From assembly GCA_035649615.1 (NCBI GenBank), contig DASRJF010000409.1, positions 1-39,147 of the forward strand: DNA of 39,147 bases. The letters are read 5' to 3'. How positions within the stretch are numbered: position 1 is the first letter of the stretch; every line of letters starts with the position of its first letter. Positions 134-36,351 of the stretch are shown here, in pieces. A program made the translations under genes and the position numbers. The notes below the pieces were generated by a model. That model was not told the origin of the DNA. It saw only the letters and a list, made by a program, of their open reading frames with translations, and searched no databases. The stretch comes from Planctomycetota bacterium (GTDB lineage: Bacteria > Planctomycetota > MHYJ01 > JACPRB01).

Positions 134-242
134 CTCCAGCTTCAAGCTTCAAGCTCCAAGCTTCAAGCCAGAGCCCGTACGGGCCATGCCCGAATGGGCT
201 CCTTCTAGCTTAAAGCTTAGAGCTTAAAGCTTAAAGCTGGAG
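134..242. repeat. Heptamer-periodic inverted repeat between convergent paralogs (AGCTTCA-type array facing AGCTTAA-type array)
   Basis: Left arm ctccagcttcaagcttcaagctccaagcttcaagcc. Right arm tagcttaaagcttagagcttaaagcttaaagctggag. The arms are complementary except for one C/T difference every 7th base. The centre contains the palindrome gcccgtacgggc (173-184). Confidence 0.9.
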
Positions 243-947
243 TTAATCCGCGACTTCGACAGTCGCTCGAATCGGGCGTGACGCGCGCCGAGGCGGGGGC
301 GGAGCCTCGAAGGACGGCCCCGGCGTTCCCGAGAACCCCTGGTAGAGCAGCCCGAAGACGAAAAGCGGCAGGAACGCCGCGAGGTGGAGCAGGACGCGCG
401 TCGAGGGCGAGATCTGCTGCAGCGGCGCCAGCACCGCCAGCGAGATGCCGTAGGTCACGAAGACGCTCCCGATCAGCGACGAATTCAGCACGTAGAAGAA
501 CTTCGGGAAGAGCCCGCCCAACCCGCCGCCGAGCAGGAAGATCACCGCGGTCCCCAGCATCGTCTGCTCCCCGGCCTTGAAGAGGGTCGGTGAGAAGACC
601 GAGGCGAAGAGCGCCACGGTGAAGCCCCCCAGGAGGATGCCGACGAACCGCTTGCAGAACGCCCCGATGTACGCGCCCGCCGCGGAGCACGCCGCGACAT
701 AAAGGAAGGGCGACGACGCGCCGTGCGGCGAGAAATGGCTTTTCAGGAAGAGGCCCGCCCACCCGCCGACGATGAGGCCGGTGATGCCGAGGAAGTACTC
801 GTGGTGGCGCCAGCCGAACAGGAGGAACGAGCCCCCGAACACGATCGAGAGCAGGGCGATGATCTCGGGAAAGTAAGTCCCGATGAGGCTCTTGTGGTGG
901 GAGAGGTTGAGCCGCTCCACGAAGTCGACAATTTCCCCGACGTTCAT
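243..947 (-). CDS. Integral membrane protein, unknown function (about 7 hydrophobic segments)
   Basis: ATG at 947-945, TAA at 245-243, 234 aa. Repeated Gly-rich hydrophobic stretches (IIALLSIVFGGSFLLFGW, GITGLIVGGWAGLFL, VGILLGGFTVALFASVF, TAVIFLLGGGLGGLF, LHLAAFLPLFVFGLLY). The overlapping 217..960 ORF is Arg/Pro-rich alternative-frame noise. Confidence 0.75.
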   Translation of the reverse strand: MNVGEIVDFVERLNLSHHKSLIGTYFPEIIALLSIVFGGSFLLFGWRHHEYFLGITGLIVGGWAGLFLKSHFSPHGASSPFLYVAACSAAGAYIGAFCKRFVGILLGGFTVALFASVFSPTLFKAGEQTMLGTAVIFLLGGGLGGLFPKFFYVLNSSLIGSVFVTYGISLAVLAPLQQISPSTRVLLHLAAFLPLFVFGLLYQGFSGTPGPSFEAPPPPRRASRPIRATVEVAD

Positions 948-1020
948 AGAAACTCCGCAATGTGATTCATCGGTCCGAGGGGCGCTTCCGCTTGAGAGAA
1001 ATGGTCGCCGGGACCCGGGG

Positions 1021-2121
1021 CTATTTTTCGGAGATCAGCGTCTGGATGCATCTCCCGATCTCGCGCGCGTGGTCGCTGAAGATCGGATTGACGTACCGGA
1101 CCAGGCCCTTGCGATCGATCACGAACACCATCGGCAGGTCGTCGATCCCGTAGGCCGAGGCGATGGGCCCCTTGAAGCCATCGCCGTCCAGGACGACCGG
1201 CCACGCGACGCCGGCCCGCGCCAGGTCGGTTTCCAGCTTCGCCTTGTCCTTGTCGATGGCCACCGCGAGGATCGAGACATCCGTCGCCGCGAATCGCCGG
1301 GCCAGCCGCTTCATCACGCCCGCCTCGACCGCGAAGTCGGGAAACGACGCGCCCAGGAAGTAGAGCACGGTCACCTTGCCCCGGGCGAAGTCGCCCTTGA
1401 CCGCCTCGCCCTTCAGGTTCAAGCCCTCGACCGGCTTCGGAGGTTTCCCGATCCACAACCACGCGGCGAGGATCTGCTTCGCGAACTCGACGGTCGCCCC
1501 GTCGGGGCACGACCGGACCGTCTCCTCGAGCAGGGCCCGCCCGTCGCCGGGTTTTCCGGTGATCAGGAGGAAGAGCGCCTGCTGGAGCACGGTCGCCCAT
1601 TCCTCCAGCTTCCCCTTGTACGCCGCGCGCAGGTCGGCGAGCGCCTTGAGCGCGTCGTCGTCGCGCCCCTCGCAAAGAAACGCCTGGGCGATCCGGAGCT
1701 TCGCCTCGAACAGGCGGGGATCCGTCGGGAAGTCGCGGACCAGGGCTTGGAACGACTCCCGCGCCTGCGCGTCCCGGCCGGCCGCCAGCCGGATCTGGCC
1801 GAGATTCATGAGGACCGTCGGAACTTGCGCGTGTTTCGGCCAGCCTTCGAAGAAGGCGCGGGCGTGCGCCTCCGACCCGTCGTAGTCCTCGAGGTCGGCG
1901 CAGATTTCGCACGCGATCGCGCGCGCGCGGGCCCCGGACTCGGAATCGGGCTTCGAGTCGATGAACTTGACGACCTCGGCCAGCGTCGCGCGCGCCGCGG
2001 CGGTGAGATCGTCGTAGGTCTTCGCCCGGCGGAGGGCGTCGCCGTGCCGCGCGATGATGGTGTCGAGAGGCGATGGCCCCTGCGCGAGAAGGACCGCCGC
2101 CAGCGTCAGAGTCGCGATCAT
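1021..2121 (-). CDS. Secreted TPR-like + thioredoxin-fold (TlpA/ResA/AhpC-TSA-like) protein lacking the CxxC motif
   Basis: The ATG at 2121 gives the signal-like N-terminus MIATLTLAAVLLAQG (the track start at 2139 is TTG). There is a helical-repeat middle region. The C-terminal thioredoxin-like pattern is GKVTVLYFLGASFPDF...ILAVAIDKD...WPVVLDGDG...YGIDDLPMVFVIDRKGLVRY. Confidence 0.7.
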   Translation of the reverse strand: MIATLTLAAVLLAQGPSPLDTIIARHGDALRRAKTYDDLTAAARATLAEVVKFIDSKPDSESGARARAIACEICADLEDYDGSEAHARAFFEGWPKHAQVPTVLMNLGQIRLAAGRDAQARESFQALVRDFPTDPRLFEAKLRIAQAFLCEGRDDDALKALADLRAAYKGKLEEWATVLQQALFLLITGKPGDGRALLEETVRSCPDGATVEFAKQILAAWLWIGKPPKPVEGLNLKGEAVKGDFARGKVTVLYFLGASFPDFAVEAGVMKRLARRFAATDVSILAVAIDKDKAKLETDLARAGVAWPVVLDGDGFKGPIASAYGIDDLPMVFVIDRKGLVRYVNPIFSDHAREIGRCIQTLISEK

Positions 2122-2182
2122 GGCTTCCGTCTCCGGCAAAAATCACGTGCCCATTCCGGGCGGGGCTTCTATAACCTCCCCC

Positions 2183-3232
2183 ATGGCGCGGCGCAAGCTC
2201 CGGCTCGGCCTCCTCACCGGAGGCGGCGACGGCCCGGGGCTCAACGCCGTCATCCGCGCCGTCGTCAAGAAGGGGATCCGGGACCTCGGCGCCTCGTTCG
2301 TCGGCATTCTCGACGGTTTCGTCGGGCTTGTCGAGCGCCGGTGGCGGCCCCTGACGTTCGACACGGTCTCGGGGATCCTGCACAACGCCGGGACGATCCT
2401 CGGCACGTCGAACAAGGGCGATCCGCTGGCCTACGGCGACCGCGGCAACGTGATGCCGGTCGTCCTCCGCCACCTGCGCGAGCTGAGGCTCGACGGGCTG
2501 ATCTGCCTGGGCGGCGACGGGACGATGCGGATCGCGCAGGGCCTGTCCCGGCGGTGGAACCGCGTCGTCGGGATCCCGAAGACCATAGACAACGACGTGG
2601 CGGGGACCGAGATCACGTTCGGCTTCGACACCGCGGCGAAGGTCGCGGCCGACGCGGTCCAGATCCTGGCTGCGACGGCCGACGCGCACCGCCGGGTGAT
2701 GGTCGTCGAGGTCATGGGGCGGACCGCGGGGTGGATCGCGCTGCACGCCGGGATCGCCGGGGGCGCGGACGTGATCCTCATCCCGGAGATCCGGGGGTCG
2801 ATGAGCAAGGTCGCGGAGTTCATACGACGCCGGCACAAGACCCGGAGGTTCACGCTCGTCGTCGTCGCGGAGGGGGCGGCGCCCGAGGGCATCGACCGCG
2901 CGTCGCTGCACCCCGGGATCATCGGCACGACGGTGGCCGACCGGATCGAGGACGCGGGATTCGAGGCGCGGGTGACCATCCTCGGCCACCTTCAACGGAG
3001 CGCGCCGCCGACGCCCGCCGACCGGGTGCTCGCGACGCGGTTCGGCGCGGCGGCGGTGGATCTTGTCGCGGACCGAAAGTTCGGTCGCATGACCGCCGTC
3101 CGGGGGGGTAGAATTACAAGTCTGCCGCTGGCGCGGGTGGCAGGCCGGGTGAAGCTCGTGCCGCGGGACCACGAGTTGGTGCGGGCCGCCCGATCCTTGG
3201 GCACCTCATTTGGGGACGAGGGCGTTCTGTAG
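2183..3232 (+). CDS. pfkA: 6-phosphofructokinase (PfkA family)
   Basis: ATG at 2183. Motifs LGLLTGGGDGPGLNAVIR, LICLGGDGTMRIA, GIPKTIDNDV, VMVVEVMGRTAGWIALHAG, ILGHLQRS. The track ORF start at 2054 overlaps the divergent upstream gene. Confidence 0.9.
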   Translation: MARRKLRLGLLTGGGDGPGLNAVIRAVVKKGIRDLGASFVGILDGFVGLVERRWRPLTFDTVSGILHNAGTILGTSNKGDPLAYGDRGNVMPVVLRHLRELRLDGLICLGGDGTMRIAQGLSRRWNRVVGIPKTIDNDVAGTEITFGFDTAAKVAADAVQILAATADAHRRVMVVEVMGRTAGWIALHAGIAGGADVILIPEIRGSMSKVAEFIRRRHKTRRFTLVVVAEGAAPEGIDRASLHPGIIGTTVADRIEDAGFEARVTILGHLQRSAPPTPADRVLATRFGAAAVDLVADRKFGRMTAVRGGRITSLPLARVAGRVKLVPRDHELVRAARSLGTSFGDEGVL

Positions 3233-3254
3233 CTTATGTATCATAGGTTATACT
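3225..3254 (+). promoter_or_regulatory. Possible sigma-70-like promoter for the merR-like gene
   Basis: An AT-rich patch in otherwise GC-rich DNA: TTCTGT (3225-3230), 18-nt spacer, TATACT (3249-3254), about 60 nt upstream of ATG 3313. Recognised by eye only. Confidence 0.2.
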
Positions 3255-3312
3255 TCCGGTGACCGGAGCGGACCGGCCCGCCGCGACTGGCGGGCCCGAT
3301 TGGGAGGTGGGC

Positions 3313-3558
3313 ATGGCCCCCCGCAAGCTGTACAAGATCGGCGAAGTGATGAAGTACACGAACCTGTCCCGCCAGACCATCCACAACTACACCATGATGG
3401 GCCTCATCCGCGAGGCGGACTGGACCGAGTCGGGCCACCGCCTCTACGCCGAAGAGGTCTTCGACCGCATCCGCAAGATCGAGATGCTCAAGCGGCACCG
3501 GCCCCTCCGGGAAGTGATGGAGATCCTGGGCAAAGAGGACGCCGTCACCAAGTCCTGA
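3313..3558 (+). CDS. MerR-family helix-turn-helix transcriptional regulator (short, 81 aa)
   Basis: GGGAGG RBS at 3302-3307, ATG at 3313. N-terminal MerR-type HTH YKIGEVMKYTNLSRQTIHNYTMMGLI followed by GHRLYAEEVFDRIRKIEMLK. Confidence 0.8.
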   Translation: MAPRKLYKIGEVMKYTNLSRQTIHNYTMMGLIREADWTESGHRLYAEEVFDRIRKIEMLKRHRPLREVMEILGKEDAVTKS

Positions 3559-3561
3559 CCC

Positions 3562-3733
3562 GGAAGCTGGAAGCGGGAAGTTGGAAGCGGGAATCCGGAT
3601 TCCTTCAACCCGCCGTGACCGTCATTCCAAGTTTGAGGTTCCCCATTCCCCATTCCACATTCCTCATTCCCCATTCCCATTCCACATTCCGGATTCCGCA
3701 TTCCATTCCACATTCCATCTTCCACCTTCCTTT
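3562..3733. repeat. Heptamer-periodic repeat block: GGAAGNN x5 array, conserved core, then CCNCATT/CATTCC array
   Basis: ggaagct ggaagcg ggaagtt ggaagcg ggaatcc (3562-3598). Core ccggattccttcaacccgcc. Then ccccatt ccccatt ccacatt cctcatt ccccatt ... ccggatt ccgcatt ... ccatctt ccacctt (3641-3733). The distal part is an imperfect complement of the GGAAG array. Confidence 0.9.
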
Positions 3734-3815
3734 CCAAATTGACTTCACTTCAAGGCCTGTCATGCCGATAGGCTCTTGATAGGGGCCGTTCCGCCTAGTG
3801 AGAGGGAGAGGGGAA

Positions 3816-5225
3816 ATGGACTGGGTCCGCCGCTCCGTCGACTCGTTCCAATCCGCGTGGGCGGGCTTTCCCGTCAGCTACCGCGTCCTCACCGGCTTCC
3901 TCCTCGTCCTGCTCGCCCTGGTCGGCGCCTGGGGCGTCAACGCGGCGGGGAAAGAAGGCTGGGTCAAGATCGCCGACGCCGGGGAGTCGCTCGACAAGCG
4001 TGGGCAGATCGTGGCCAAGCTGCGCGAACTGAAGATCAAGACCAAGGTCGAGGGCGACACCATCTTCGTCTTGTCGACCCAGGCCGACGAGGCGATGCTC
4101 CAGCTTCACACGTCCGGTGCCCTCGGAGACGAGCCCTTCTTCAAGTACCTCCAGGAGACGAAAATCTTCGAGACGCGCGCGCAGTCCGACCGCCAGTGGC
4201 TCGTCGCCGTCCAGGGCCGGCTCGCCGCCCTCATCCAGAACCTGCCCTACGTCCGGCGCGCGTGGGTCCAGATCGCGGAGTCCGGCGACGCCAAGAGCCT
4301 GTTCTGGGCGAACGGCCGGGAGGCGACCGCCGCGGTCATCCTCGAACTCAAACCCCACGAGAAGATCACGCCCCGCCGGGCCGCCGGCATCGCGGCGCTC
4401 GTCGCCGCGGCCAGGCCCGACATCAAGCCGACCGGCGTGAAGATCCTCGACGAGACGGGCCAGCTCATCCGGGTCCTGGATTCGGAGTCGTTCGTCAGCC
4501 AGGACCTCCGGTCGCAGGAGTTCGAGATCGCGTCGAGCCTCGAGGCGAAGGCGCTGCTCGTGCTTCCCCACAATTCCCGGGTCGCCGTGACGGTGCGGCT
4601 CAACGCGGAGAGCCGGAAGCTGGAGCAGAAATCGGAGGAGAAGAACGGGGCGCCGCCGGTCGGGATCTCGGAAGGGGGGGACGATCCGGTGGTATCGTCG
4701 ATCCGGCAGAAATCCGAGCAGCGGGACCTGCCGGCGGGATTCAGCATCGAGTTCATTTCGGTCGCGGCCCTGATTCCCGAAACGGCGGGCGATGTGCCCA
4801 GCGGAGCCGGTCCCCGCGCCGCGTTTCTCAGGCAAGTCACCGATGGCCTGCGCAACGCCACGGGGGCGAAGGACAAGGACATTTCGATCCGGATCGCGCC
4901 GCTCCCGGCCTCCGTGTTCACGAACGCGGTTCCCGCGGCGCCCGCTCCGCCGCCGCCCCCGACGGGAATCCGCCTCGACGAACGCGCCGCCCTGCTCGTC
5001 GCGTGCGGGATCCTCGCCCTCGCGGCCGCCTACGGACTCGTGCGGCGCCTGGCGCCCGCGGCGGAGCCCGGGGTCGTGGCGGAAGAGAGCCTGCGCGCCC
5101 CGGGCGAGTCGATCCTCTCCGCGCAGGACGAGGTGCTGGACAAGATCCGCGAGGGCGTGCGGGAATCGGTGGCTCGCAATCCGCGCGAGGCCGCCGACGT
5201 CGCCCGGAGGTGGATGGCGCCGTGA
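3816..5225 (+). CDS. fliF: Flagellar M-ring protein FliF
   Basis: RBS gagggagagggg, then ATG at 3816. N-terminal TM segment (VLTGFLLVLLALVGAWGV). YscJ/FliF-like region (IFVLSTQADEAMLQL, AVQGRLAALIQNLPYVRRAWVQIA, ATAAVILELK). Second TM near the C-terminus (AALLVACGILALAAAYGLV). Sits immediately upstream of fliG. Confidence 0.85.
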   Translation: MDWVRRSVDSFQSAWAGFPVSYRVLTGFLLVLLALVGAWGVNAAGKEGWVKIADAGESLDKRGQIVAKLRELKIKTKVEGDTIFVLSTQADEAMLQLHTSGALGDEPFFKYLQETKIFETRAQSDRQWLVAVQGRLAALIQNLPYVRRAWVQIAESGDAKSLFWANGREATAAVILELKPHEKITPRRAAGIAALVAAARPDIKPTGVKILDETGQLIRVLDSESFVSQDLRSQEFEIASSLEAKALLVLPHNSRVAVTVRLNAESRKLEQKSEEKNGAPPVGISEGGDDPVVSSIRQKSEQRDLPAGFSIEFISVAALIPETAGDVPSGAGPRAAFLRQVTDGLRNATGAKDKDISIRIAPLPASVFTNAVPAAPAPPPPPTGIRLDERAALLVACGILALAAAYGLVRRLAPAAEPGVVAEESLRAPGESILSAQDEVLDKIREGVRESVARNPREAADVARRWMAP

Positions 5226-6244
5226 CGCTGAAATCCCCGCCCGAAGGCCCGGCCCCCGGCGCGCGCCGCGTGGCCGTGCTCCTGTCGTCGCTCGACCTCG
5301 AGTCGGGCCGGACGCTGCTGCGGGAGTTTCCCGCGCCGGAGCGCCAGAAGGTCCTCATCGAAGTCGCCCGTCTCGAGATCGATCCGCCGTCGCGCGACGA
5401 GCTGGAGTCCACGCTGCGCGAGTTCCAGGCGATGCGCGAGACGACCCCCGCGCCGGGACCCGGCGGCCGGGAGGTCGCGCGCGCCCTCGTCGAGGCGGCG
5501 GGGGATCCCGAGGAGCGGCGCCGGCTGCTCGAGCGGATCGAGGCCGCCGTCCAGTCGGTCCCGTTCGGATTCCTCGCGAAGGCGGGGCCGGCCCGCCTGG
5601 CGGAGGCGCTGCGGGACGAGCACCCGCAGACGCTCGCGCTCATCGCGGCCTGCCTTCCGCCCGCCCAGTCCGCGCAGCTGATCGACCGCCTGCCGCTGAA
5701 GACGCAGGTCGAGGCGGTGCGCCGCCTCGCGACGATGGAGCCGATGCCGCCGGAGACGGTGCAACGGATCGAGAAGGCGCTCGAATCCCGGTTCGCGTCG
5801 AAGCGCGACGCCGGATCGCCGTCGCCGGGCGGATTCCGGTCGGCCGCCACCGTCCTGGGCCGGGCCCTGCCGGAAACCAGCCGCCACGTCCTGGCCGAGC
5901 TCGAATCCGACGATCCGGACTTGGCGGAGCAGCTCCGGGAGGCCCTGCTGTCGTTCGACGATTTGAGGGAAGTCGACGATCGCGGGCTCGTCGCGCTGGC
6001 CACGGAGATCGACTTGAAGACGATGGCCGTGGCGCTCAAGTCCCCGGCCCCGGAATTCACCTCGCGCCTCATTCCCGCCCTGGCTCCCGCGGAGGCGGCG
6101 CTCCTCGTCAGCACGATGGATGCCCTGGGGCCCGTGACGTTGCAGGAAATCACGGTGGCGCGACGCAAGATCTCGAGAACGGCGCAATGGCTCGAGGCGC
6201 GCGGGGAGCTCGAAGTGCGCCGCGTTCCCGGAAGGGTGGCTTGA
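5222..6244 (+). CDS. fliG: Flagellar motor switch protein FliG
   Basis: The GTG at 5222 overlaps the fliF stop (GTGA). FliG-like sequence: AVLLSSLDLESGRTLLREF, FGFLAKAGPARLAEALRDEHPQTLALIAACLPP, FDDLREVDDRGLVALATEIDLKTMAVALK, EARGELEV. Confidence 0.9.
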   Translation: MTLKSPPEGPAPGARRVAVLLSSLDLESGRTLLREFPAPERQKVLIEVARLEIDPPSRDELESTLREFQAMRETTPAPGPGGREVARALVEAAGDPEERRRLLERIEAAVQSVPFGFLAKAGPARLAEALRDEHPQTLALIAACLPPAQSAQLIDRLPLKTQVEAVRRLATMEPMPPETVQRIEKALESRFASKRDAGSPSPGGFRSAATVLGRALPETSRHVLAELESDDPDLAEQLREALLSFDDLREVDDRGLVALATEIDLKTMAVALKSPAPEFTSRLIPALAPAEAALLVSTMDALGPVTLQEITVARRKISRTAQWLEARGELEVRRVPGRVA

Positions 6245-6838
6245 ATGGATCCGGTCCGTCCCTTTTACCTGCCGTCGTTCGAGAAGGAGGCCGAGGCGAT
6301 CGTCGCCCGCTCCCGGGAACTGGCGCGCGACCTCACGGTCTCCGCTGCCGCCGAGTCGGTGCGGATCCGCGACGAGGCCCAGCGCGAGGGGTTCGAGCGG
6401 GGACAGGCCGAGGGGCGCGAGCGGGCCCGGCAGGAGGAATCGCGGAAGCTGGGCGACGCCCTCCGGAAGATCCTCGACGAGGTCGAGCGCCACCGGAGCC
6501 GCCTCGTCATGGAATCGGAGCGGGACGTCGTCCGGCTCGCCCTCGCCATCGCCGAGAAGATCGTCAAGGTGGAGGTGAAGCGCGGCAAGGCCGTCGCGGA
6601 GAACAACATCCGCGCCGCCCTCAAGCGCGCGGTCCGCGGTCACGCGCTGGAGATCCGGCTTCATCCGGACGACGCCGCGCGGCTCCGGCCGGCGGGATCG
6701 GAGTCCGACGGCGCGACCATCACGGCCGATCCTTCCATCTCCCCGGGCGGGTGCGTGGTCCGCACGCCGGCGGGCACGGTGGATCTCGACATCAAGACCC
6801 AGCTGGCTGAAATCGAGCGGGGCTTGCTGGGCGAATAG
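6245..6838 (+). CDS. fliH: Flagellar assembly protein FliH
   Basis: ATG directly abuts the fliG stop (TGAATG). Charged coiled-coil N-terminal half. FliH/YscL-like C-terminal half (VVRLALAIAEKIVKVEV...LEIRLHPDDAARL...GGCVVRTPAGTVDLDIKTQLAEIE). Position is between fliG and fliI. Confidence 0.75.
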   Translation: MDPVRPFYLPSFEKEAEAIVARSRELARDLTVSAAAESVRIRDEAQREGFERGQAEGRERARQEESRKLGDALRKILDEVERHRSRLVMESERDVVRLALAIAEKIVKVEVKRGKAVAENNIRAALKRAVRGHALEIRLHPDDAARLRPAGSESDGATITADPSISPGGCVVRTPAGTVDLDIKTQLAEIERGLLGE

Positions 6839-6850
6839 GACGATTCCCGA

Positions 6851-8969: not shown

Positions 8970-8974
8970 CCCCA

Positions 8975-9069
8975 GTTCAAAGTTCAAGGTCCAAAGTTAT
9001 CCTGCGTCCGGAGTCCTGGGTCGGGCGGATTCCGGATGACCTTGAACTTTGAACCTTGAACCTTGATCC
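8975..9069. repeat. Heptamer-periodic inverted repeat (GTTCAAA/GTTCAAG/GTCCAAA) downstream of fliN
   Basis: Left arm gttcaaagttcaaggtccaaagtt. Right arm gaccttgaactttgaaccttgaaccttgatcc. The spacer holds tcctgcgtc (9000-9008) and gagtcctgggt (9011-9021), both also present in the 19491-19610 repeat. Confidence 0.9.
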
Positions 9070-9119
9070 TTTCGGAATTCCCCTTCCCTTTTGATTCGCC
9101 AGAGATATAATTTACACAT

Positions 9120-9144
9120 CATAGTTTACAAAATGTAAACTATG
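9120..9144. promoter_or_regulatory. Perfect 11-bp inverted repeat (operator-like) in an AT-rich patch; TATAAT at 9106-9111
   Basis: catagtttaca-aaa-tgtaaactatg (9120-9144), preceded by agagaTATAATttacac. This is the only strongly AT-rich stretch in the flagellar block. It lies just upstream of, or overlapping, the fliO start candidates (9142/9172). Confidence 0.5.
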
Positions 9145-9171
9145 AGTTGGTTCGAGAGAGGGGAAGAGGGA

Positions 9172-10862: not shown

Positions 10863-10876
10863 GGAAGGGGAACCTC

Positions 10877-11692
10877 GTGACGTCGCGGCTTCTCGTGTCG
10901 GCTTTCGTCCTCGCCCTCTTCGCGGGGGGCGCGGCGGCGGCCTCCGCCTACGACCAGGACCGCGCGCCCGGGTCGAAGCAGGAGCAGAAGCCGGACGGGC
11001 TCATCCCCACGCAGGACTGGCTCAAGCGCGACGGCGATCCCGACAAGGTGGTCACGACGGTGCAGCTCTTCGTCATCTTCACCGTCCTCGCCCTCGCGCC
11101 CTCGATCCTCGTCCTCCTGACCTCGTTCACGCGGATCGTGATCGTCCTCTCGTTCGTGCGGCGCGCGCTCGCCCTCCAGGACCTGCCGCCGAACCAGGTC
11201 ATCGTCGGGCTCTCCATGATCCTCACGTTCCTCGTCATGACGCCGACGATCACCGCCATCAAGCAGGACGCCGTCGACCCGTACCTCGCGGCCGACGCGA
11301 AGGCGCGGATCTCCCAGCCGGAGGCGCTCGACCGGTCCGTCAAGCACCTGCGCCACTTCATGGAGAAGCACACGCGGGGCGAGGACCTGACGCTTCTCAT
11401 GGAGATCACGAAGCAGCCCCGCAAGGCCGAGGGCTGGACGCTGGCCGACGTGCCCACGACGGTCCTTATCCCCGCGTTCGTGATCAGCGAGCTCCGCCGG
11501 GCGTTCATCATGGGATTCGCGCTGTTCCTTCCCTTCCTCGTCATCGACATGGTCGTGGCCTCGATCCTCGTGTCGATGGGCATGATCGTCCTCCCGCCGA
11601 TGCTGATCTCGATCCCGTTCAAGATCCTCCTGTTCGTGTTGGTGGATGGATGGCACCTGATCGTGGGGTCGCTCGTGAAGAGTTTTTACTGA
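10877..11692 (+). CDS. fliP: Flagellar export apparatus protein FliP
   Basis: RBS gggaagggg, then GTG at 10877. Signal peptide, then the conserved FliP core: VQLFVIFTVLALAPSILVLLTSFTRIVIVLSFVRRALALQDLPPNQVIVGLSMILTFLVMTP ... IPAFVISELRRAFIMGFALFLPFLVIDMVVASILVSMGM. Confidence 0.95.
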   Translation: MTSRLLVSAFVLALFAGGAAAASAYDQDRAPGSKQEQKPDGLIPTQDWLKRDGDPDKVVTTVQLFVIFTVLALAPSILVLLTSFTRIVIVLSFVRRALALQDLPPNQVIVGLSMILTFLVMTPTITAIKQDAVDPYLAADAKARISQPEALDRSVKHLRHFMEKHTRGEDLTLLMEITKQPRKAEGWTLADVPTTVLIPAFVISELRRAFIMGFALFLPFLVIDMVVASILVSMGMIVLPPMLISIPFKILLFVLVDGWHLIVGSLVKSFY

Positions 11693-11791
11693 GACTTCAG
11701 ACTTCGGACTTCAGACTTCAGAAAGAGGTCGTCAGTGGTCAGTTTTCAGGAATCGGGAATCGCTAATCACCAATCGCCAATCGCCAATCGC
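11693..11791. repeat. Two different heptamer tandem arrays (GACTTCA x4; GGAATCG/CCAATCG x6) downstream of fliP
   Basis: gacttca gacttcg gacttca gacttca (11693-11720). ggaatcg ggaatcg ctaatca ccaatcg ccaatcg ccaatcg (11749-11790), followed by ttttt. The two arrays are not complementary to each other. Confidence 0.9.
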
Positions 11792-12107: not shown

Positions 12108-12113
12108 CCGGAC

Positions 12114-18416: not shown

Positions 18417-18662
18417 ATGGAGAAGAAGCTCGGCGCCATCCTGGGGATTCTCGCGGCGGCCGCGGTGATCTTCGCGGGGGTGTCGCACGGCGTGCCGGCC
18501 GGGGAGACGCTCGTGCGGGCCGCGGTGGCGTTCGCGGCGGGGGGGCTGGTCGGCTGGCTGGTCTTCGGCAAGCTCGGGGCGGCATTGATGCGGGAGGCGG
18601 CGGGTTCGGAACGCAAGGATTCCGAAGGATCTGGAACGGAAAACGGTGAACGCAACGGTTGA
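18417..18662 (+). CDS. Small two-TM membrane protein, unknown function
   Basis: 81 aa: LGAILGILAAAAVIFAGV and AVAFAAGGLVGWLVFGKLGAAL, with a charged Gly/Ser/Glu tail. Lies between flhG and fliA. Its 3' end runs into an ACGG-heptamer array. Confidence 0.45.
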   Translation: MEKKLGAILGILAAAAVIFAGVSHGVPAGETLVRAAVAFAAGGLVGWLVFGKLGAALMREAAGSERKDSEGSGTENGERNG

Positions 18663-18689
18663 CGGCCAACGGTAAACGGCGGACGGCAG
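18634..18689. repeat. Heptamer tandem array (ACGGNNN x about 8)
   Basis: gaacgga aaacggt gaacgca acggttg acggcca acggtaa acggcgg acggcag. It spans the stop of the 18417..18662 ORF and the fliA leader. Confidence 0.8.
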
Positions 18690-19490: not shown

Positions 19491-19610
19491 GAGTCCTGGG
19501 TTCAAGGTCCAAGGTGATTCAAGGTCCATCGTCCTGCGTCGTTCAAAGTCGACATTGGACCGACCTTGGATTCCGGACCTTGGATAACTTTGGACTCAGG
19601 ACCAAGGACT
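19491..19610. repeat. Heptamer-periodic imperfect inverted repeat (GTTCAAG/GTCCAAG facing CTTGGAN), GGA-dense on the plus strand
   Basis: gagtcctgggttcaaggtccaaggtgattcaaggtccatcgtcctgcgtcgttcaaagtc ... ttggaccgaccttggattccggaccttggataactttggactcaggaccaaggact. Shares gagtcctgggt and tcctgcgtc with the 8975-9069 repeat. Confidence 0.9.
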
Positions 19611-27458: not shown

Positions 27459-27594
27459 TAGTGTCCTTAGCAATAAGATCTTTCTCATGCACAGAATCAA
27501 CCATGACTAGCGCTGTTTGGCACAATGCCAGTCTCTTCTCAATTAATAACTAGACACAGGGACCGCACTTTGGGGTCATATTCCGGTAGCATAG

Positions 27595-29055: not shown

Positions 29056-29145
29056 GTGCTTTTTGCCATCACTAGCCGTTATGACACTCAGAGGGCAATG
29101 AGATCCCAACGCGCATTTCACCATGCACTTCGCGCGGCACATGCC

Positions 29146-30060: not shown

Positions 30061-30253
30061 TGATCAAGTCCTCACGCTTAGCAATCCAAGGTTATTCCAC
30101 TTGGTGCGGAACTCCGGTGCGATGTTATGTCGCAGGGGCGGACATGCTCTCTAGGCGCACTTGGCAACTCCAATAGCTGATTCGTCCGCCTCAGCGCGTC
30201 AATTGGCTCCAGGATTGACAGGAAGTACCTCATCAGTTCGCCCGGTCCCCGCA

Positions 30254-30505
30254 CTAAAGCCTCGAAAGCCCTTCACGGATGCAGGAGGTCAGATTCTCCG
30301 TTCCCAAGAGCACCGGTGTTGCATCCAGATTCGCTGGGGATCGTAGGGCGCTCATGTCCACCGTGGCTCCCTGGAGGAGAAACGACGTTCCGCTCATGCC
30401 GGGCTGCATGCCGAGACCACCGTTTTGGAGGCCGAGGCTATTTAATGCGAAGGGGTTGCCGTTCGTCATTTCCGTTCCATTGCAGCCGCATCCGTTCGGG
30501 CCCAT
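30254..30505 (-). CDS. Island gene D: small Gly/Asn-rich protein consisting mostly of the SALR-PANL module
   Basis: Strong RBS AAGGAGG 6 nt before the ATG at 30505. 83 aa. C-terminus GTSFLLQGATVDMSALRSPANLDATPVLLGTENLTSCIREGLSRL aligns with the C-terminus of gene E. Confidence 0.6.
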   Translation of the reverse strand: MGPNGCGCNGTEMTNGNPFALNSLGLQNGGLGMQPGMSGTSFLLQGATVDMSALRSPANLDATPVLLGTENLTSCIREGLSRL

Positions 30506-30520
30506 CGAGTCCTCCTTTCG

Positions 30521-30853
30521 CTAGACTCCCGCAAGAAGGTCCAGAAGCTCCTGCTTTTCCTTGGGAGTCAGCACCTTCTTCTGCCGCCGTTTTTCCCTCA
30601 GTGCCGACAGCCGCAGGGCACGACTCTCCTGGATCGACTTTTGCTTCGTTCGTTGCTTGGCCGCGGCTTCAAGCTTCGCTCTGGGCTTGGGTCCAGGCTC
30701 CACCAAAGCCCGCTCAAGCACTTGGCCGGCGCCGTCGACCGCCAAGAACCAGACCGAGCCTTCCTCGTCCTCCTCGCGGAAGTAGGTTGCGCCCACGCGG
30801 GAGCTGACCACCGGGGCCGGCCCTTTCCAGGCGGTCCTCTTCACTTTGATCAT
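30521..30853 (-). CDS. Island gene C: small protein with a beta-rich N-terminal half and a highly basic helical C-terminal half
   Basis: The ATG at 30853 is 1 nt after the gene B stop. 110 aa. C-terminal KPRAKLEAAAKQRTKQKSIQESRALRLSALREKRRQKKVLTPKEKQELL. Confidence 0.55.
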   Translation of the reverse strand: MIKVKRTAWKGPAPVVSSRVGATYFREEDEEGSVWFLAVDGAGQVLERALVEPGPKPRAKLEAAAKQRTKQKSIQESRALRLSALREKRRQKKVLTPKEKQELLDLLAGV

Positions 30854-30854
30854 T

Positions 30855-32162
30855 CTAAACCCTGGCCATCCGATAGAGCGACAATTCCCCCGTGAATCCG
30901 AGGGGGCTGTTGGTCAGAACGTCGATTTGGGTGATGTTCGCCCCCGCGTTGTTCCAGAGCCCAGCATAGGAGGAAAGCTGGGCCACGACGCCTCCCAAGT
31001 CCTGAACTTCGTTGCTGAATACGAATCGAAGGAGGCCAGTTTTCGCCACCATGTGGGCCACGAACCAAGATTCCAGGAGGTTGACTTGGGGTTCCGCAAC
31101 CCTGAGATCTCCGAATACGGCTCCTGCCAAGACAACCCCGGTCGCCACAATCTTCTGGGTGGAGTGAATTCCAAGCGGGGGCAATCCGTTGGGCTGTAGC
31201 GTGATCACGGCCGGGGCGATTGGATCGAGGTTCTTCACCCGGCCGGTCAGGACGTACTGCTCGTCCGCGTCGCCATTGAGCCCGAAGAAGGTCACCAGGA
31301 TGATGGGCGCCACGATCCGCTTCGTCTCGATGAGCTGAAGCCGGTTGAAGTCCAGAGCAAGGGGAGAAGGAACCTGGTAGTCGTTCAGCGTCTGCTCGAG
31401 ATAGACGAGCGCCTCGTCCCACCAGCATGTAACCAGGATAGACGCGTCCACCTCGATGCGCCACGTCAGACTTGTGATGGGGGGCGGAATTATCCCCGAG
31501 ACGGACAGGGTTTCGAAGTTCCCGCTGCCAGTGTGCGGGCTCGACACGAACACGGGAACGCCGTTGGCCGCAACGACCAGCGTCACAGCGCCCGGCCTTG
31601 CGGTTTTTACCTTGCACGAGAACGTCAGATTCCTGCCTGCGAACTCCGCGCAATTCGGAATGACGTCTTGATCAATCTGGACGACCCCCGTGGCCGGAAC
31701 GGTCACGTCGACCTTCATGGAATAGAGGCCGCTTACCACGTCTGGAGGATTCGTTTCTCGAGAAACCGTGTAGCCAGGAGCGGCCAGGTCGCGTGCTATC
31801 CAGCCCTTTGTCAGCGGCGTTCCGCTTGGAGGATTTGTGAAAGTAGTCGCCTCCGTCCAGACTTCGCAGCCGGGGTTGATCACATAGTTGACCTGGTCCG
31901 TGCTGGCAGGAGGAGGCGGCGGCTGCACTGATCCGCCGCCGCCCGCGTACGCGGGAAGGTCAATGCACTGTGTCAGGAACGGCTGCTGCGGCGGTGCCGC
32001 TGGGGGCTTCAACGGAAGCTGATCCGTCAACGTACGAAGCGGCGGGGTCAAAAGTGGAAGCGGCTCCAATGCCGAGAGCAGGCCTGCTTGCAGCAGGGTA
32101 AACGCCTGCCCCCGAATTGCCTCGTCGGGAGTCTTGGAGATCTTGGTCGTCACAAGGTTCAT
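30855..32162 (-). CDS. Island gene B: jelly-roll/carbohydrate-binding-module-like structural protein (fibre/decoration-like)
   Basis: The ATG at 32162 is 2 nt after the gene A stop. 435 aa. Pro-rich linker (aa 40-90). The central segment NYVINPGCEVWTEAT...PLTKGW...NLTFSCKVKT...GNFETLSVSG...WWDEALVY resembles CBM4/9- or galactose-binding-like domains. A second beta-rich C-terminal domain follows. Confidence 0.5.
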   Translation of the reverse strand: MNLVTTKISKTPDEAIRGQAFTLLQAGLLSALEPLPLLTPPLRTLTDQLPLKPPAAPPQQPFLTQCIDLPAYAGGGGSVQPPPPPASTDQVNYVINPGCEVWTEATTFTNPPSGTPLTKGWIARDLAAPGYTVSRETNPPDVVSGLYSMKVDVTVPATGVVQIDQDVIPNCAEFAGRNLTFSCKVKTARPGAVTLVVAANGVPVFVSSPHTGSGNFETLSVSGIIPPPITSLTWRIEVDASILVTCWWDEALVYLEQTLNDYQVPSPLALDFNRLQLIETKRIVAPIILVTFFGLNGDADEQYVLTGRVKNLDPIAPAVITLQPNGLPPLGIHSTQKIVATGVVLAGAVFGDLRVAEPQVNLLESWFVAHMVAKTGLLRFVFSNEVQDLGGVVAQLSSYAGLWNNAGANITQIDVLTNSPLGFTGELSLYRMARV

Positions 32163-32164
32163 TC

Positions 32165-33130
32165 CTAGGGTGTCACTGAGCTATTCGTTCTGATGAGCAT
32201 CTGGGCCGCGGCCACTTCGGATTCCAGGACCAGGCTCACGTTCATGAAAATCCGGTACGTGGTGTTGGCGGTTGCGGCTCCGAGAACTTCCTTCACGCGG
32301 ACGATCTTGCTCCCCCAAACCGCGGGCGTGATGCCGTAGAGTCCGCCCCGGCCCAGGACAAGGGCGTAGATTCCGATGCCGTTGCCTTGGCCCCCAATCG
32401 TGTCCGTAGTGGAAATGTTGTCGTCAATGAGGATGGGGATTCCATCGTAGGTTGGAGTCAGCCTCTGCTTCATGCCTCCATTACAATCAGGCACATTCAT
32501 TAGGGCGTAGTGAGGCCTCAATCCCTTGTCATAGTGAGCCTTCAAGATGTTCTTGTAACCCAGCGTGTGAGTGACCAGGACGTGAGGCCTGCCGCTATTC
32601 GCCTTGATCTGTCCCACCAAGCGGGCAAGGTCATCCAGAACAAGCAGAAATCCCCCTACGTCCTTTGGCAGGATCTTTTGGGCTGCAGGCAAGAGTGCTA
32701 CAATGCCGTTGAACTGCTCAAAGTCTGGTCCTGCTGAGACGCCCGCATATAGCTTGGCGCAAAACTCATAAAGGAATCGCCGGATCGCCGTCTCGAGCTG
32801 GACTCCGACTTGTGAATTTACGTTCGATTCGGTATTGGCTGCAAAATCCATTACGATAACGTCTTGAACGAGCTGCTTGAGCTCGAATGAAACGCTCGTG
32901 GGGATCGTTTTCCCTTCGGTCGTAGCAAAGGCACCGGTGGCCTTGTCCCAGAGCGGCGCAATGCCAAAGTCGCCCGAAGTGGCGGCCCGGTTGATTCTGA
33001 GGGAGTCGCCGTCCACAGGAAAAAACGGCAAGACTTCCAGGCTCTGAACGGGCTTTGGTGCGTTCTCGATGATGTGCGCAAGAAGCTGGTCATTGGACAA
33101 CAGAAGCGATTGAGCTTTCGTCAAGGTCAT
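32165..33130 (-). CDS. Island gene A: putative HK97-fold major-capsid/encapsulin-like shell protein
   Basis: AGGAG RBS (complement of 33139-33143) 8 nt before the ATG at 33130. 321 aa. The order of elements recalls HK97-type capsid proteins: MTLTKAQSLLLSNDQLLAHIIEN, VSFELKQLVQDVIVMDFAANTESN, long helix QVGVQLETAIRRFLYEFCAKLYAG, RPHVLVTHTLGYKNILKA, YDGIPILIDDNIS, YRIFMNVSLVLESEVAAAQMLIR. This is pattern recognition only, no search was run. Confidence 0.5.
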   Translation of the reverse strand: MTLTKAQSLLLSNDQLLAHIIENAPKPVQSLEVLPFFPVDGDSLRINRAATSGDFGIAPLWDKATGAFATTEGKTIPTSVSFELKQLVQDVIVMDFAANTESNVNSQVGVQLETAIRRFLYEFCAKLYAGVSAGPDFEQFNGIVALLPAAQKILPKDVGGFLLVLDDLARLVGQIKANSGRPHVLVTHTLGYKNILKAHYDKGLRPHYALMNVPDCNGGMKQRLTPTYDGIPILIDDNISTTDTIGGQGNGIGIYALVLGRGGLYGITPAVWGSKIVRVKEVLGAATANTTYRIFMNVSLVLESEVAAAQMLIRTNSSVTP

Positions 33131-33478
33131 GGATTGCTCTCCTAATCGATACGAAGTTCTTTCAAGAAATGTGTTAGGTGGATCCAAGCAGTGCGATAGC
33201 GGGTGATGCGAGGTATGCGACGAAGAAATTTGCTTCGGGCTCGATGCAGAAAGTAGGGGCGCATGTCCTCACCGTAACCGCCTTCACCACGATCGGGCCC
33301 CTACTTCCCGATCGGAAGGCCGTTCAGGCGCGTTTCTCAGACTCTGAACTTCACTAACCCTATGACCCTATACGCATTGCGGTCAACAGTTCGTACAGAA
33401 AAAGCGCTCAAGAAAAATGAAAAAAATGGGGGTTGGATAGTGGAGTCCATAAGTTACGGATTTCGTAATCCGTACCGC

Positions 33479-33582
33479 CCGGGGAGGCGGATAGGACTCG
33501 AACTTGATTCATAGGAGCATCTAGAGCATATCCGGGGCCCGGGTCGGACTCGAACGTGGATTGGGGAGCTGCGTCTTTGGAG
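33479..33582 (-). repeat. Two tandem units of about 52 nt, each resembling a tRNA T-loop + 3' acceptor end (att-like remnants)
   Basis: On the minus strand, GTTCGAGTCC occurs twice, 52 nt apart (complement of 33494-33503 and 33546-33555). The first is followed by TATCCGCCTCCCCGG and the second by GACCCGGGCCCCGG. The units align at about 60% identity by eye. The 5' halves of a tRNA are absent. Confidence 0.4.
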
Positions 33583-34839
33583 CTATTTGCCAAGCGCCGA
33601 GCGGAAAAATCCTCGCCTCCAGGCTGTCTCGAGAACAGTGACATCCGCTCCCAATCCGGCCGCCGTCGCCAGTTCGAGGCGCGAGACGGCGTGACGGCCC
33701 TCGAGGAAGAACCACATCGACGCCGCCGCGTACGAAGCCCCCGCGTCCTCGGGCAAACCGTCGCGGCTAATCGCTAATACCAGAAGTTGGTCCGAATGGA
33801 GGGCATCGACTTGGACGTCGGCCGGTGATCCCTCGAGACGGAACGAGACGCCGTTCTCGTGGATCCGCTTGAGCGTTCCCCGCGCGAACTTGCCGTCCGC
33901 CAGCAGGAACGCCACTTCCTGGTTGAGCCTGGCTTTAAGCCCCTTCTGGATCGCCTCCCAGAAAGCAGCCGCGGCCGCGGCCGCCGCGCGGTCCGCCGCC
34001 AGCAGGTCCTTGCACGGCGCCAGGGCCGGATCCGCGAGGGCCGCATCCAGGTCCTTGATCACCTCCGCATAGGCGCGCTCTTTCAGCCGCTTCAGGAGCC
34101 GCTGCGCGCGGTCGCCGAACGCCTTGCGGGCGCCCTCTTCGACCGACGCCGTCCGCTTCGCTTCCTGGGCCTGCCGATACTGGTCCAGCAGCTGGAGATC
34201 GACCTCCGCGGGCTCCTGGATCTGCGGAATCGACTGCTGCGCCGCGGACTTGAGCAGACGAACCGCCTCGTCGATGGATCCCGCGGTGGCGGCGGTCTTG
34301 GCGGCTCGAACCGCCTTTCCATACTCCTGGCGCGCTGAATTTTCGATGTTGGCGATCAGCGCCGCCGCCCGACGCTTGAGCGGATCCTTTTTCGTCGACT
34401 CGCCGAATCGGGCGAGCCCGGCCACCGCCTCTCCAAATCGACCCGCCTTCGTCAGCTCCACCGCGTCCTGCCTGGGTTTTTCGAATTCGAGGTCGATCGC
34501 CTTCTGCAGACTGGCCTCGAGCTCCACGCACCGGGCGGCCGCCATTCGACCCGCCTGGGTGAAGGGGTGTCGCACGCAGACGTCGTGGTACCCGGATTGC
34601 GCGAGTTCGGGCCGGTCGGGCTTTTCGCGACGGGCGGCGTCGTCCAGGAGCGCCTTCGCCAGGGACTCCGCGGATTCCTCCTGGGCCGGGCCCTTCGCCG
34701 GCCCCGAATCCGGCGGCTTGGTACTCGAGTTCGCGACCGGCGAGGTCTTCGGCGCCGCCGCCGGGTCGGGCGACTCTGAGCCACCGCATCCCGGCATCAG
34801 CAGGGCGGCCGACATCGCTAACAGAAGTCTGGAAGTCAT
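33583..34839 (-). CDS. Probable lipoprotein, helical, unknown function
   Basis: The ATG at 34839 overlaps the stop of the upstream HEAT gene (ATGA). MTSRLLLAMSAALLMPGCGG (lipobox-like). 418 aa, Ala/Glu/Lys-rich helices. The track ORF 33583..36021 is an alternative-frame N-terminal extension. Confidence 0.65.
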   Translation of the reverse strand: MTSRLLLAMSAALLMPGCGGSESPDPAAAPKTSPVANSSTKPPDSGPAKGPAQEESAESLAKALLDDAARREKPDRPELAQSGYHDVCVRHPFTQAGRMAAARCVELEASLQKAIDLEFEKPRQDAVELTKAGRFGEAVAGLARFGESTKKDPLKRRAAALIANIENSARQEYGKAVRAAKTAATAGSIDEAVRLLKSAAQQSIPQIQEPAEVDLQLLDQYRQAQEAKRTASVEEGARKAFGDRAQRLLKRLKERAYAEVIKDLDAALADPALAPCKDLLAADRAAAAAAAAFWEAIQKGLKARLNQEVAFLLADGKFARGTLKRIHENGVSFRLEGSPADVQVDALHSDQLLVLAISRDGLPEDAGASYAAASMWFFLEGRHAVSRLELATAAGLGADVTVLETAWRRGFFRSALGK

Positions 34840-36227
34840 GGCTGCTTCGCGCCCGGCAATTTGCGATCGAAGATCTTCAGCTCTTCCGGGGAAACCGGAA
34901 AATCGTTCTCCTCCTGTTCCTTCCAGAAGAGCTTCTCGTCGTCGTCGATGTGGCGCTTGTACTGGGCGTACCACTTCTGGAGCTCGCTCACGCCGTCGAT
35001 TTCCTCCCGCGTGATCCGCTGCGCGAGGACCCGCGCCAGGCGGCGCACCTCGTCGTTGCCGCCGCCGAGGAGCTCCATCACCAGGGGAATCGCCACGCCC
35101 CCCGTCTTCTCGATGGCGTTGAACGACACCGTCATCAGGTCGCGGCTCCCGCCCATCGCGACCTTGAAACTCGCCAGCGCCCCCGCGTCGCGCAGCATGC
35201 CGAGCTGCCGGACGGCCTCCAGCCGGACCTCCGGATCCTTCGACTTGAGCATCGTCTCGCGGAGCTCCTCCACCGCCCGCGACCGGTGCTTCCGGAAGGC
35301 CGACGCGAAGAGGGCGCGCATCCGGACGTCGTGCGGAGGTTTGGCCCGGAGACAATCCCCCAGCAGGTCGCACGCCGGCGCGTCCGGAAGCCGGCGGGCG
35401 AGGGAGAGGACGGCGTGCCGGCGCGCGAGATCCTCCTCGGCCGGGGCCCAGGCGAAATCGGACTTGAGGCGAGGGCCCACGTCGAGCCGCGCGAGCGCCT
35501 CGACGATCGCGGCCAGCGCGTCCTTGTCCTTCTCGACCCGCATCGCCTTCGCGAGAGCGCTCAACGCGTGCGGAGCGGGCGGGCTGATCAGCGCCTTCGC
35601 CGATTGCATCCGCTCGGCGGCCTGGTCCGAGGCGAGCCCCGCCACGGCCGTTTCCTGGCCCGGGCCGAGGTCGTCCGTGATCTCGGGGCGTTGGACTTCC
35701 TGGGGCAGGGACCCGAACGTGAGATTGAGCCGCTCGAGGGGCACCGGCTCCGGCGGCTTCTCCGCCGGATCCTCCACGCCGCCCGTCGCGCCCTTGGCGT
35801 CTCGGACCAGCCGCATGAACTGGAAGAGCCGGCCCTTGAGGCCCGCCAGCGCGTCCCGCTCGGAGACCGGCGCGCGCTTTTCCAGGATCTCGATGAGGTC
35901 GCGCGTCTCGTTGCAGATGTCGATGCTGACCATGAGCTGCCGGCGCCTCATCGGATCGCGATCCGGCTTCGCGGAGGCCTCCTCGAAGAGCTTCGTGGCT
36001 TGGTCCATCCGCGATTCGCACAGCCGGCGCGCCTGGGCCAGGGATGTAAAGTCGGCGATGACGGAAATGGCCGGCAGTCGGATCGTGCCCTTGGCGGTGA
36101 CGACGACGACCTCGACGCCTTCCCGGGTGACCTGGCCTTCGTGGATCTTGCCGTCGCGCGTGATGACCGTGTGATCCGCAAGAGTGCCCAGGAAGAGAAG
36201 TGGGCCGAGGAAGAAAAGAGAGCGCAT
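34836..36227 (-). CDS. Secreted HEAT-repeat protein
   Basis: MRSLFFLGPLLFLGTLA signal. HEAT-like repeats (HALSALAKAMRVEKDKDALAAIVEALARL, KDPEVRLEAVRQLGMLRDAGAL, AIPLVMELLGGGNDEVRRLARVLAQRI). 463 aa. Confidence 0.7.
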   Translation of the reverse strand: MRSLFFLGPLLFLGTLADHTVITRDGKIHEGQVTREGVEVVVVTAKGTIRLPAISVIADFTSLAQARRLCESRMDQATKLFEEASAKPDRDPMRRRQLMVSIDICNETRDLIEILEKRAPVSERDALAGLKGRLFQFMRLVRDAKGATGGVEDPAEKPPEPVPLERLNLTFGSLPQEVQRPEITDDLGPGQETAVAGLASDQAAERMQSAKALISPPAPHALSALAKAMRVEKDKDALAAIVEALARLDVGPRLKSDFAWAPAEEDLARRHAVLSLARRLPDAPACDLLGDCLRAKPPHDVRMRALFASAFRKHRSRAVEELRETMLKSKDPEVRLEAVRQLGMLRDAGALASFKVAMGGSRDLMTVSFNAIEKTGGVAIPLVMELLGGGNDEVRRLARVLAQRITREEIDGVSELQKWYAQYKRHIDDDEKLFWKEQEENDFPVSPEELKIFDRKLPGAKQP

Positions 36228-36250
36228 TTATCTAACCTGCTTTACTCGCA

Positions 36251-36351
36251 GATTGTGGATTGTCGATTGTGGATTGTGGAGATCCGATTCCTTTCAACCC
36301 GCTCTGCCGGCGCCTGCGGAATCCAAAATCCACAAGCCAAAATCCAAAATC
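36251..36351. repeat. Heptamer-periodic imperfect inverted repeat (GATTGTG x4 facing AAAATCC/ACAAGCC x5) with the conserved core
   Basis: gattgtg gattgtc gattgtg gattgtg ga. Core gatccgattcctttcaacccgc (compare 3592-3620). Then ggaatcc aaaatcc acaagcc aaaatcc aaaatc. Lies between the gatB stop and the HEAT gene start. Confidence 0.9.

Follow-up and report, generated by a model that had tools for sequence, protein, structure and literature searches.

The 39,147-nucleotide contig DASRJF010000409.1 (assembly GCA_035649615.1), here called the window, comes from a soil member of the Planctomycetota and carries seven intergenic elements, loci A to G, which are built of tandem 7-nt units. These are heptanucleotide simple sequence repeats (SSRs) of the kind known as short tandemly repeated repetitive (STRR) sequences or long SSRs (LSSRs), and most of them consist of two complementary arrays around a short unique core. 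We read them as hypervariable intergenic filler, made by heptamer slippage and recombination, neutral or selfish and without conserved function, and would put the probability of this reading at roughly 0.6. The class is already described and widespread; what is new is a Planctomycetota host of ca. 70% GC, the high load, the dynamics at the strain level, and orthologous sites which are empty or unrelated in the relatives. The hairpins which many of the elements form are probably an incidental feature of transcripts.

Tandem Repeats Finder (TRF) located period-7 arrays at all seven loci, as had been claimed in an earlier reading of the sequence (the original prediction). Those at E and F are weak or interrupted (18642-18680, with a period of 14, and 19550-19585), while the others lie at 138-168/207-238 (A), 3562-3593/3639-3730 (B), 8974-8998/9039-9071 (C), 11692-11722/11758-11791 (D) and 36251-36280/36320-36351 (G). 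A lag scan with 28-nt scanning segments and a threshold of at least 22 self-matches returned 72 segments at lag 7 and none at each other lag from 4 to 12, and pattern shuffles gave an expectation of 0 matches by chance.

Locus B (3562..3733), between a MerR-like gene and fliF, has a first arm of 4.6 units of GGAAGCG/GGAAGCT (3562-3594), a core containing GATTCCTTCAACCCGC (3595-3638) and a second arm of about 13 units of CATTCCN (3639-3733), which exceeds the range of 4 to 10 units per locus first given. Locus C (8974..9071) consists of a GTTCAAG/GTCCAAA arm (8974-8998), a core (8999-9038) and 4.7 units of ACCTTGA (9039-9071). Locus F (19491..19610), between fliA and surE, is a 120-nt hairpin in which a degenerate GGTTCAA/GGTCCAA arm and a CCTTGGA arm flank the core. 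At locus G (36251..36351), between gatB and a HEAT-repeat gene, both on the minus strand, 4.3 units of GATTGTG (36251-36280) and 4.6 units of AATCCAA (36320-36351) enclose a core with GATTCCTTTCAACCCGC (36281-36319). The two arrays of locus D (11692..11791), (GACTTCA)x4.4 at 11692-11722 and 4.9 AATCGCC-like units at 11758-11791, are not complementary; the locus lies between fliP and fliQ, and its first array overlaps the fliP stop codon. Locus E (18634..18689) is a single degenerate AACGGNN array upstream of fliA, overlapping the end of an 81-amino acid open reading frame (ORF).

The claim that most loci are paired, imperfectly reverse-complementary arrays giving long hairpins is correct for A, B, C, F and G, which fold far better than shuffled sequences (z-scores -3.3 to -13.6), but not for D and E, which form no hairpin and fold no better than shuffles (z > 0), D consisting of two non-complementary arrays and E of a single one. 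The hairpins of B, C, F and G reach -45 to -64 kcal/mol with z down to -6.9; locus A as printed, which is chimeric (see below), gives -71 to -89 kcal/mol with z to -13.6. Among the cores of the elements are GATTCCTTYCAACCCGC, GAGTCCTGGGT, GTCCTGCGT and the 31-nt core X of locus A. That different loci have unique cores in common was also upheld beyond chance expectation: the B/G alignment scores 14 against a maximum of 11 among 300 shuffles, and the scores of the motifs shared by C and F were reached in 0 and 4 of 300. Loci C and F have three core motifs in common besides their heptamer. When all 232 loci (L-numbered contigs and genomes) compared overall were searched, no core copies other than allelic ones were found, and within the ca. 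60 kb of host genome sampled the cores are unique apart from B/G and C/F.

Flanking contigs extend the host sample to ca. 48 kb, not counting a low-GC island in the window, and this DNA contains 12 heptamer loci, nine of them of the hairpin type, with at least eight different heptamers; the density is about one locus per 4 kb. Every array found lies between called genes. Placement at gene or operon ends, as originally proposed, thus amounts to no more than an intergenic position: two of the 12 stand between divergent and two between convergent genes, seven or eight being between co-directional ones. If spacers of at least 60 nt are counted, arrays occur in 11 of 16 host spacers and in none of the five within the island (Fisher p = 0.012), which agrees with the reported absence of arrays from the island. 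Judging from our own inspection of gene calls and sequence, the elements mostly start no more than 8 nt past the upstream stop codon and end before the next ribosome-binding site. Several heptamer families are represented at more than one locus: GTTCAAG at both C and F, GGAAG/CATTCC at B and two further spacers, AGCTTTA at A and at position 9627 of L228, and AATCGCC at D and at position 8472 of L227. Together with the recurring core motifs, this bears out the notion of a dispersed element family. A single array of 11 units in contig L091 (1898-1975) occupies nearly all of an 88-nt gap between convergent stop codons, with the unit changing gradually along its length from GGAATGG through AGAATCT to AGAATCA.

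The host organism has been independently assembled from at least a dozen samples (JGI, ENA, Logan), with contigs 99.8-99.96% identical to the window; it is present in ENA ERZ27257649, ERZ27257663, ERZ27257732 and ERZ27257771 and in JGI 3300006853, 3300006846 and 3300009100. When these strains are compared, 4.5% of the aligned positions differ inside the elements and 0.19% in the flanks, a ratio of about 23, the former figure leaving out stretches too divergent to be aligned. Four independent indels between strains are each exactly 7 nt long, as would be expected from the heptamer slippage suggested earlier for the arms. Besides such small changes, loci A, B, C and E and one additional spacer show sharply bordered wholesale replacement of alleles, between flanks that are ca. 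99.8% identical. At locus B one allele lacks 7 nt, and in L229 and L231 the element is replaced entirely by GGAATCT/AGATTCC arms with another core. In L081 the arms of locus C are kept with other copy numbers around an unrelated core. The place of locus E is taken in L084 and L087 by an unrelated 100-nt hairpin sequence which is nearer to the state in the relatives, and one divergent spacer holds different heptamer families in L227 and L228. The ORF upstream of fliA (window 18417-18662) has its C-terminus and stop codon inside array E; the same ORF is 70-73 amino acids long, ending at GGGTAATGGG, in L084, L087 and a lineage with a 95%-identical FliA, from which it follows that array E rewrote the end of a reading frame.

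At locus A three alleles can be distinguished, and in all of the other assemblies locus A comes after the 234-amino acid gene and is itself followed by a convergent 256-amino acid gene. Allele V1 (L227, L229) has AGCTTTA and AGCTTAA arms around core X (31 nt). Allele V2 (L230) has AGCTTCA as its first arm, a second arm as in V1, and core X inverted exactly, i.e. its core is the perfect reverse complement of that of V1. Allele V3 (L226, L228, L231, L232) combines AGCTTCA and GCTTGAA arms with an unrelated 58-nt core, Y. In the window, locus A (133..242) is printed with four AGCTTCA units (133-170), a 31-nt core (171-201) and 4.6 units of AGCTTAA/AGCTTAG (202-242), and this corresponds to a V2 left half fused with the left half of V1 in reverse-complement orientation. 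The sequence at 1..117 is that of 259-375 reverse-complemented without a mismatch, and 259-375 is the 3' end of the 234-amino acid gene at 243-947 on the minus strand. Since V2 and reverse-complemented V1 have ca. 62 nt in common, the start of the contig is most likely a fold-back chimera with its junction running through hairpin A. At locus A, a G.U pair in each heptamer together with a compensatory pair was considered as a sign of selection on the RNA; this argument is void, the two arms having come from different strain alleles by fold-back misassembly.

The comparison of orthologous sites shows elements present in some genomes and missing in others. In relatives of ca. 75% DNA identity (L001, L101) the C, D, F and G sites measure 0-50 nt and are empty: the C spacer of L001 is 28 nt long and has no element, D is absent from both, and G is absent from L101, in which gatB and the HEAT-repeat gene abut. 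The F site of L097, L100 and L101 spans 28-50 nt and holds no element. In the relatives of ca. 80-83% identity (L097-L100) F is empty and the D site carries (AACGGGT)x10. In L098 the (AACGGGT)x10 array occurs at a D site which has GGAATCGGGAATCG in common with the window, and beside this common sequence there is one GACTTAG where the window has (GACTTCA)x4.4; the alignment suggests that the D array may have grown in place from a local seed. A more distant relative, L103 (ca. 71% identity), has an unrelated heptamer hairpin directly after the fliA stop codon. Over the same region there are five loci in this organism versus none in L101, L105 and L001. Since orthologous sites at 71-83% DNA identity are empty or hold unrelated arrays, the sites are re-used and the sequences are not conserved.

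Our preferred reading, intergenic filler, would involve the following steps. Strand slippage during replication would add and remove whole 7-nt units, a mechanism consistent with the indels observed. Growth of the arrays in place from local seeds is suggested by the D site. The inverted arms could then serve as substrates for recombination, by which cores would be flipped and cores or whole elements swapped among alleles and among dispersed copies belonging to one heptamer family. The adjacent stop codon would presumably set a limit to growth, as would the next gene's ribosome-binding site or promoter, so that the free spacer gets filled. Effects on expression, as barriers at 3' ends, RNase III substrates or partial terminators, would be by-products, if they occur. 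We count the many heptamers without a common motif in favour of slippage filler, since they imply that there is no sequence constraint. Several observations weigh against this reading. Slippage alone leaves unexplained the complementarity of the arms, the sharing of heptamer families and of core motifs between separate loci (C/F, B/G, A-type and AATCGCC-type), and the sharp-bordered replacement of whole elements between ca. 99.8% identical flanks, and a copying or transposition step may be needed. The load differs strongly between relatives, which a universal property of polymerases would not predict. Lastly, the hairpin loci lie at plausible borders of transcription units and the non-hairpin loci D and E inside operons, hinting at selection on RNA structure, with n=7.

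It is possible, though on balance unlikely, that the elements are non-autonomous mobile elements, of the foldback, MITE (miniature inverted-repeat transposable element) or REPIN-like type (REPIN: hairpin formed by repetitive extragenic palindromic, REP, sequences), inserted into short spacers by an enzyme that acts in trans and recognizes structure. Candidates would be a Y1 transposase of the RAYT type (REP-associated tyrosine transposase), a nickase or a reverse transcriptase, and the cores would be mini-elements, exchangeable or mobile in their own right, comparable to the small dispersed repeats (SDRs) of cyanobacteria. Such mobility would fit the arms and core motifs common to dispersed families, sites filled or empty depending on the relative, different elements with sharp borders at one site where strain flanks are ca. 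99.8% identical, one core in both orientations, and a load that depends strongly on the lineage. No target-site duplications or conserved termini were seen by eye at C and D, which were set against the empty sites of L001, or in the flanks of F, a systematic search for duplications not having been made; the comparison with MITEs in the original prediction is thus not supported. Nor was its comparison with REP sequences, for no palindrome conserved across the loci and no GTAG/CGTC heads were found, the arms and ends varying from locus to locus. No RAYT was present among the called genes of the ca. 60 kb sampled, and no transposase is nearby. The unrelated heptamers are too many for one sequence-specific enzyme, the arrays of D, E and L091 (1898) have no inverted partner, the cores other than those of B/G and C/F are unique in the sample, and indels of exactly 7 nt are a signature of slippage. 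The sole candidate for a composite structure, in the unrelated metagenome contig L185, flanks housekeeping genes: its inverted arrays around 1.66 kb were considered as a composite transposon and rejected, the enclosed genes being aroE and one for a prepilin peptidase.

We regard as improbable the proposal that the elements are selected RNA structures, i.e. factor-independent terminators or insulators, stabilizers of mRNA 3' ends, or RNase III sites which separate the flagellar transcription units, with the heptamer periodicity being merely the way in which stems lengthen. The stability of hairpins B, C, F and G is in keeping with it, as are the element starts, which in 9 of 10 cases adjacent to a gene 3' end lie no further than 8 nt from the upstream stop codon (again by our own reading), and the positions of the hairpin loci, at merR/fliF, fliA/surE, gatB/HEAT and between convergent genes, with D and E, which form no hairpin, inside operons. 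At locus F the sense strand folds 15 kcal/mol better. Between co-directional genes there is no overall bias toward folding of the sense strand (8 vs 7, with gene orientation taken from a rough heuristic based on ORFs and third-position GC content). Hairpins followed by a T-run occur at none of the heptamer loci; of seven terminator-like sites in 1-20000, a number below the shuffle expectation, none is on a heptamer hairpin. These two results do not favour the association with terminators that had been suggested. A scan of the window against Rfam 15 at gathering scores gave 0 matches. The structures are also unconserved: relatives with the same gene order have spacers of 25-50 nt and no element, strains swap elements for unrelated sequences, and two of 12 loci lie in divergent promoter regions.

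A more speculative idea, to which we give little weight, is that of a bacterial mobile family of the foldback type, in which a dedicated enzyme would write the arms in steps of 7 nt and the cores would be exchangeable, invertible mini-cassettes. Eukaryotic foldback (FB) transposons have long inverted arms of short tandem repeats, which vary in length, and a variable middle, and are prone to inversion and recombination. The likeness lies in the inverted tandem-repeat arms and is an analogy with no homology implied; FB elements are eukaryotic, much larger and dependent on a transposase. Were there such a family, with a nickase, Y1 transposase or reverse transcriptase-like enzyme working in a 7-nt register, bursts of its activity would explain a loaded lineage beside nearly array-free relatives (71-83%), and the enzyme would be a mechanistic answer to the question why prokaryotic intergenic tandem repeats favour a period of 7.

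That the arrays are artefacts of assembly, which the original prediction had itself named as a risk, is scarcely credible: the window does begin with a chimera (1-117), locus A as printed is partly chimeric and contigs often break inside elements, but loci D, F and G have the same sequence in independent assemblies of different samples by JGI, ENA (MEGAHIT) and Logan, the allelic variants run into the correct flanking genes on both sides, and unrelated metagenome-assembled genomes (MAGs) have equivalent architecture.

The elements are not specific to this genome, as had been supposed. Equivalent paired arrays were found in MAGs of the Tepidisphaeraceae and Phycisphaerae, in a MAG labelled 'delta proteobacterium', and in many metagenome contigs. 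A scan of metagenomes with (GGAAKNN)x4 as the seed yielded 120 contigs with GC contents of 0.30-0.72. Leaving aside the seeded array, period-7 arrays are enriched about 20-fold in these contigs in comparison with control loci from 80 diverse bacteria (1.44 Mb), in which paired arrays almost never occur; other periods are not enriched. The contigs contain 48 candidate inverted pairs, ca. 40 of them without self-complementary heptamers. The 121 further arrays represent 89 different heptamers, and a search for a motif common to them found none. In L185 (GC 0.64) two consecutive spacers, 6987-7072 and 8730-8804, carry the families [GACAAGC]n and [CATTCCG]n as mirror images of each other.

In prokaryotes heptamers are the commonest long SSRs, for which slippage related to the polymerase has been proposed (Mrazek 2007, as summarised in PMC4679880). 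The one explanation of the number seven given in the accounts of that work in PMC4679880 and PMC4692102 is that it corresponds to the length of DNA which the replicative polymerase holds. The SPADE survey of 2019 likewise found tandem heptamers to be the most abundant intergenic periodic repeat, with no clue to function (PMC6344855). With these LSSR and SPADE heptamers our elements share intergenic tandem 7-nt units, many per genome, a patchy distribution across phyla, an unconserved unit and slippage as the proposed origin. They differ in that those surveys treated arrays singly, whereas here most are paired complementary arms around a core and alleles are resolved by strain. With the LSSR and STRR-like class in general they share tandem 7-nt units in at least three copies, intergenic position, occurrence at many loci and changes in copy number by whole units.

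Cyanobacterial STRR heptamers, described by Mazel et al. in 1990, reportedly form several intergenic families per genome, and Elhai et al. are said to have reported in 2008 that small mobile repeats (SDRs) are embedded in tandem heptamers of Nostoc. Several intergenic heptamer families per genome and short unique or structured inserts within arrays are features in common. The units of STRR1-3, reportedly CCCCAGT, TTGGTCA and CAACAGT, are absent here (no trimer within 3 mismatches), the taxon and GC content are different, and mobility of the cores is in our case only putative.

A parallel to the pairing is found in Xanthomonas, whose genomes each have 70-75 convergent pairs of GGGAATC arrays, potentially forming stem-loops and varying in length between species (Rehm et al. 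2015, PMC4692102). Loci A, B, C, F and G have the same arrangement, two arrays of one heptamer on opposite strands and close together, and in both cases the arrays are intergenic and vary in length and sequence between related genomes, though in Xanthomonas the single or paired type is kept. The Xanthomonas arrays are one G-rich, G-quadruplex-capable family; ours comprise many unrelated heptamers, mostly free of G-tracts, with longer unique cores, and belong to another phylum. The GGGNATC unit with a G-tract of at least 3, which gives the quadruplex capacity, is lacking: only the second array of D comes near to GGGAATC (AGGAATC GGGAATC GCTAATC at 11748), and the other units have no G3 tracts. 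The TAACTGA repeats of the Beggiatoaceae are also intergenic heptamer arrays, of 2-6 or more units and often near start codons (MacGregor 2015, PMC4679880), but comprise one heptamer that nearly always forms direct repeats and not hairpins (PMC4679880). Neither TAACTGA nor the Geobacter units are present here. REP sequences and REPINs are comparable as abundant, hairpin-forming inverted doublets that are extragenic, near gene ends and polymorphic between strains (Bertels & Rainey 2011, PMC3116915); within a genome they share a conserved, imperfect 20-40 bp palindrome with a GTAG/CGTC head (PMC3116915), in contrast to the tandem heptamer arms of many sequences here. The statement that these repeats belong to no described class is therefore to be withdrawn, as heptanucleotide LSSRs, cyanobacterial STRRs and the inverted GGGAATC arrays of Xanthomonas are on record (PMC4679880, PMC4692102, PMC6344855). 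Our literature search returned no description of such heptamer repeats in the Planctomycetota.

With its high load (about one element per 4 kb) and many heptamer families, the organism is a well-resolved natural case, and the near-identical strain assemblies, at least a dozen in number, show unit-by-unit indels, the flipping of cores and the replacement of whole elements in action. With such assemblies, rates and mechanisms become measurable from existing read data. In practical terms, the elements break contigs, create fold-back chimeras and inflate the apparent intergenic divergence of strains. Contigs from independent assemblies end in or near them (L083 and L086 at D, L093 and L096 in G, L085 and L087 near E), repeated breaks which indicate that the heptamer repeats systematically fragment metagenome assemblies of this organism.

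The host DNA of the window, at ca. 70% GC, contains a flagellar gene cluster (fliF/G, fliP, flhA, flhF, flhG, fliA), with surE and housekeeping genes after it. The FlhA protein shares 82% identity with that of SMAG_U4699, a Planctomycetota MAG among the nearest genomes; the Tepidisphaeraceae and Phycisphaerae are further off at 48-50%. The 10.8-kb low-GC island (window ca. 22850-33640) has a GC content of 0.49-0.61 per kb, or ca. 50-58% overall, against ca. 0.70 in the host, and is missing from the relative L101. The seven large ORFs of the island have no match in Pfam or PADLOC. The product of the ORF at 32165-33187 (minus strand) matches the PHROG 212 major head protein (1.5e-14) and that of the ORF at 30855-32162 (minus strand) has a weak match to a tail fibre; the island might represent a cryptic cluster, phage-derived or encapsulin-like.

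A perfect AT-rich palindrome, CATAGTTTACA-AAA-TGTAAACTATG, is located at 9117-9143 and overlaps the ATG of a gene starting near 9139. It is almost unchanged in L001 (ca. 75% DNA identity), where the neighbouring heptamer element C is not conserved, and looks like an operator site in the flagellar cluster.

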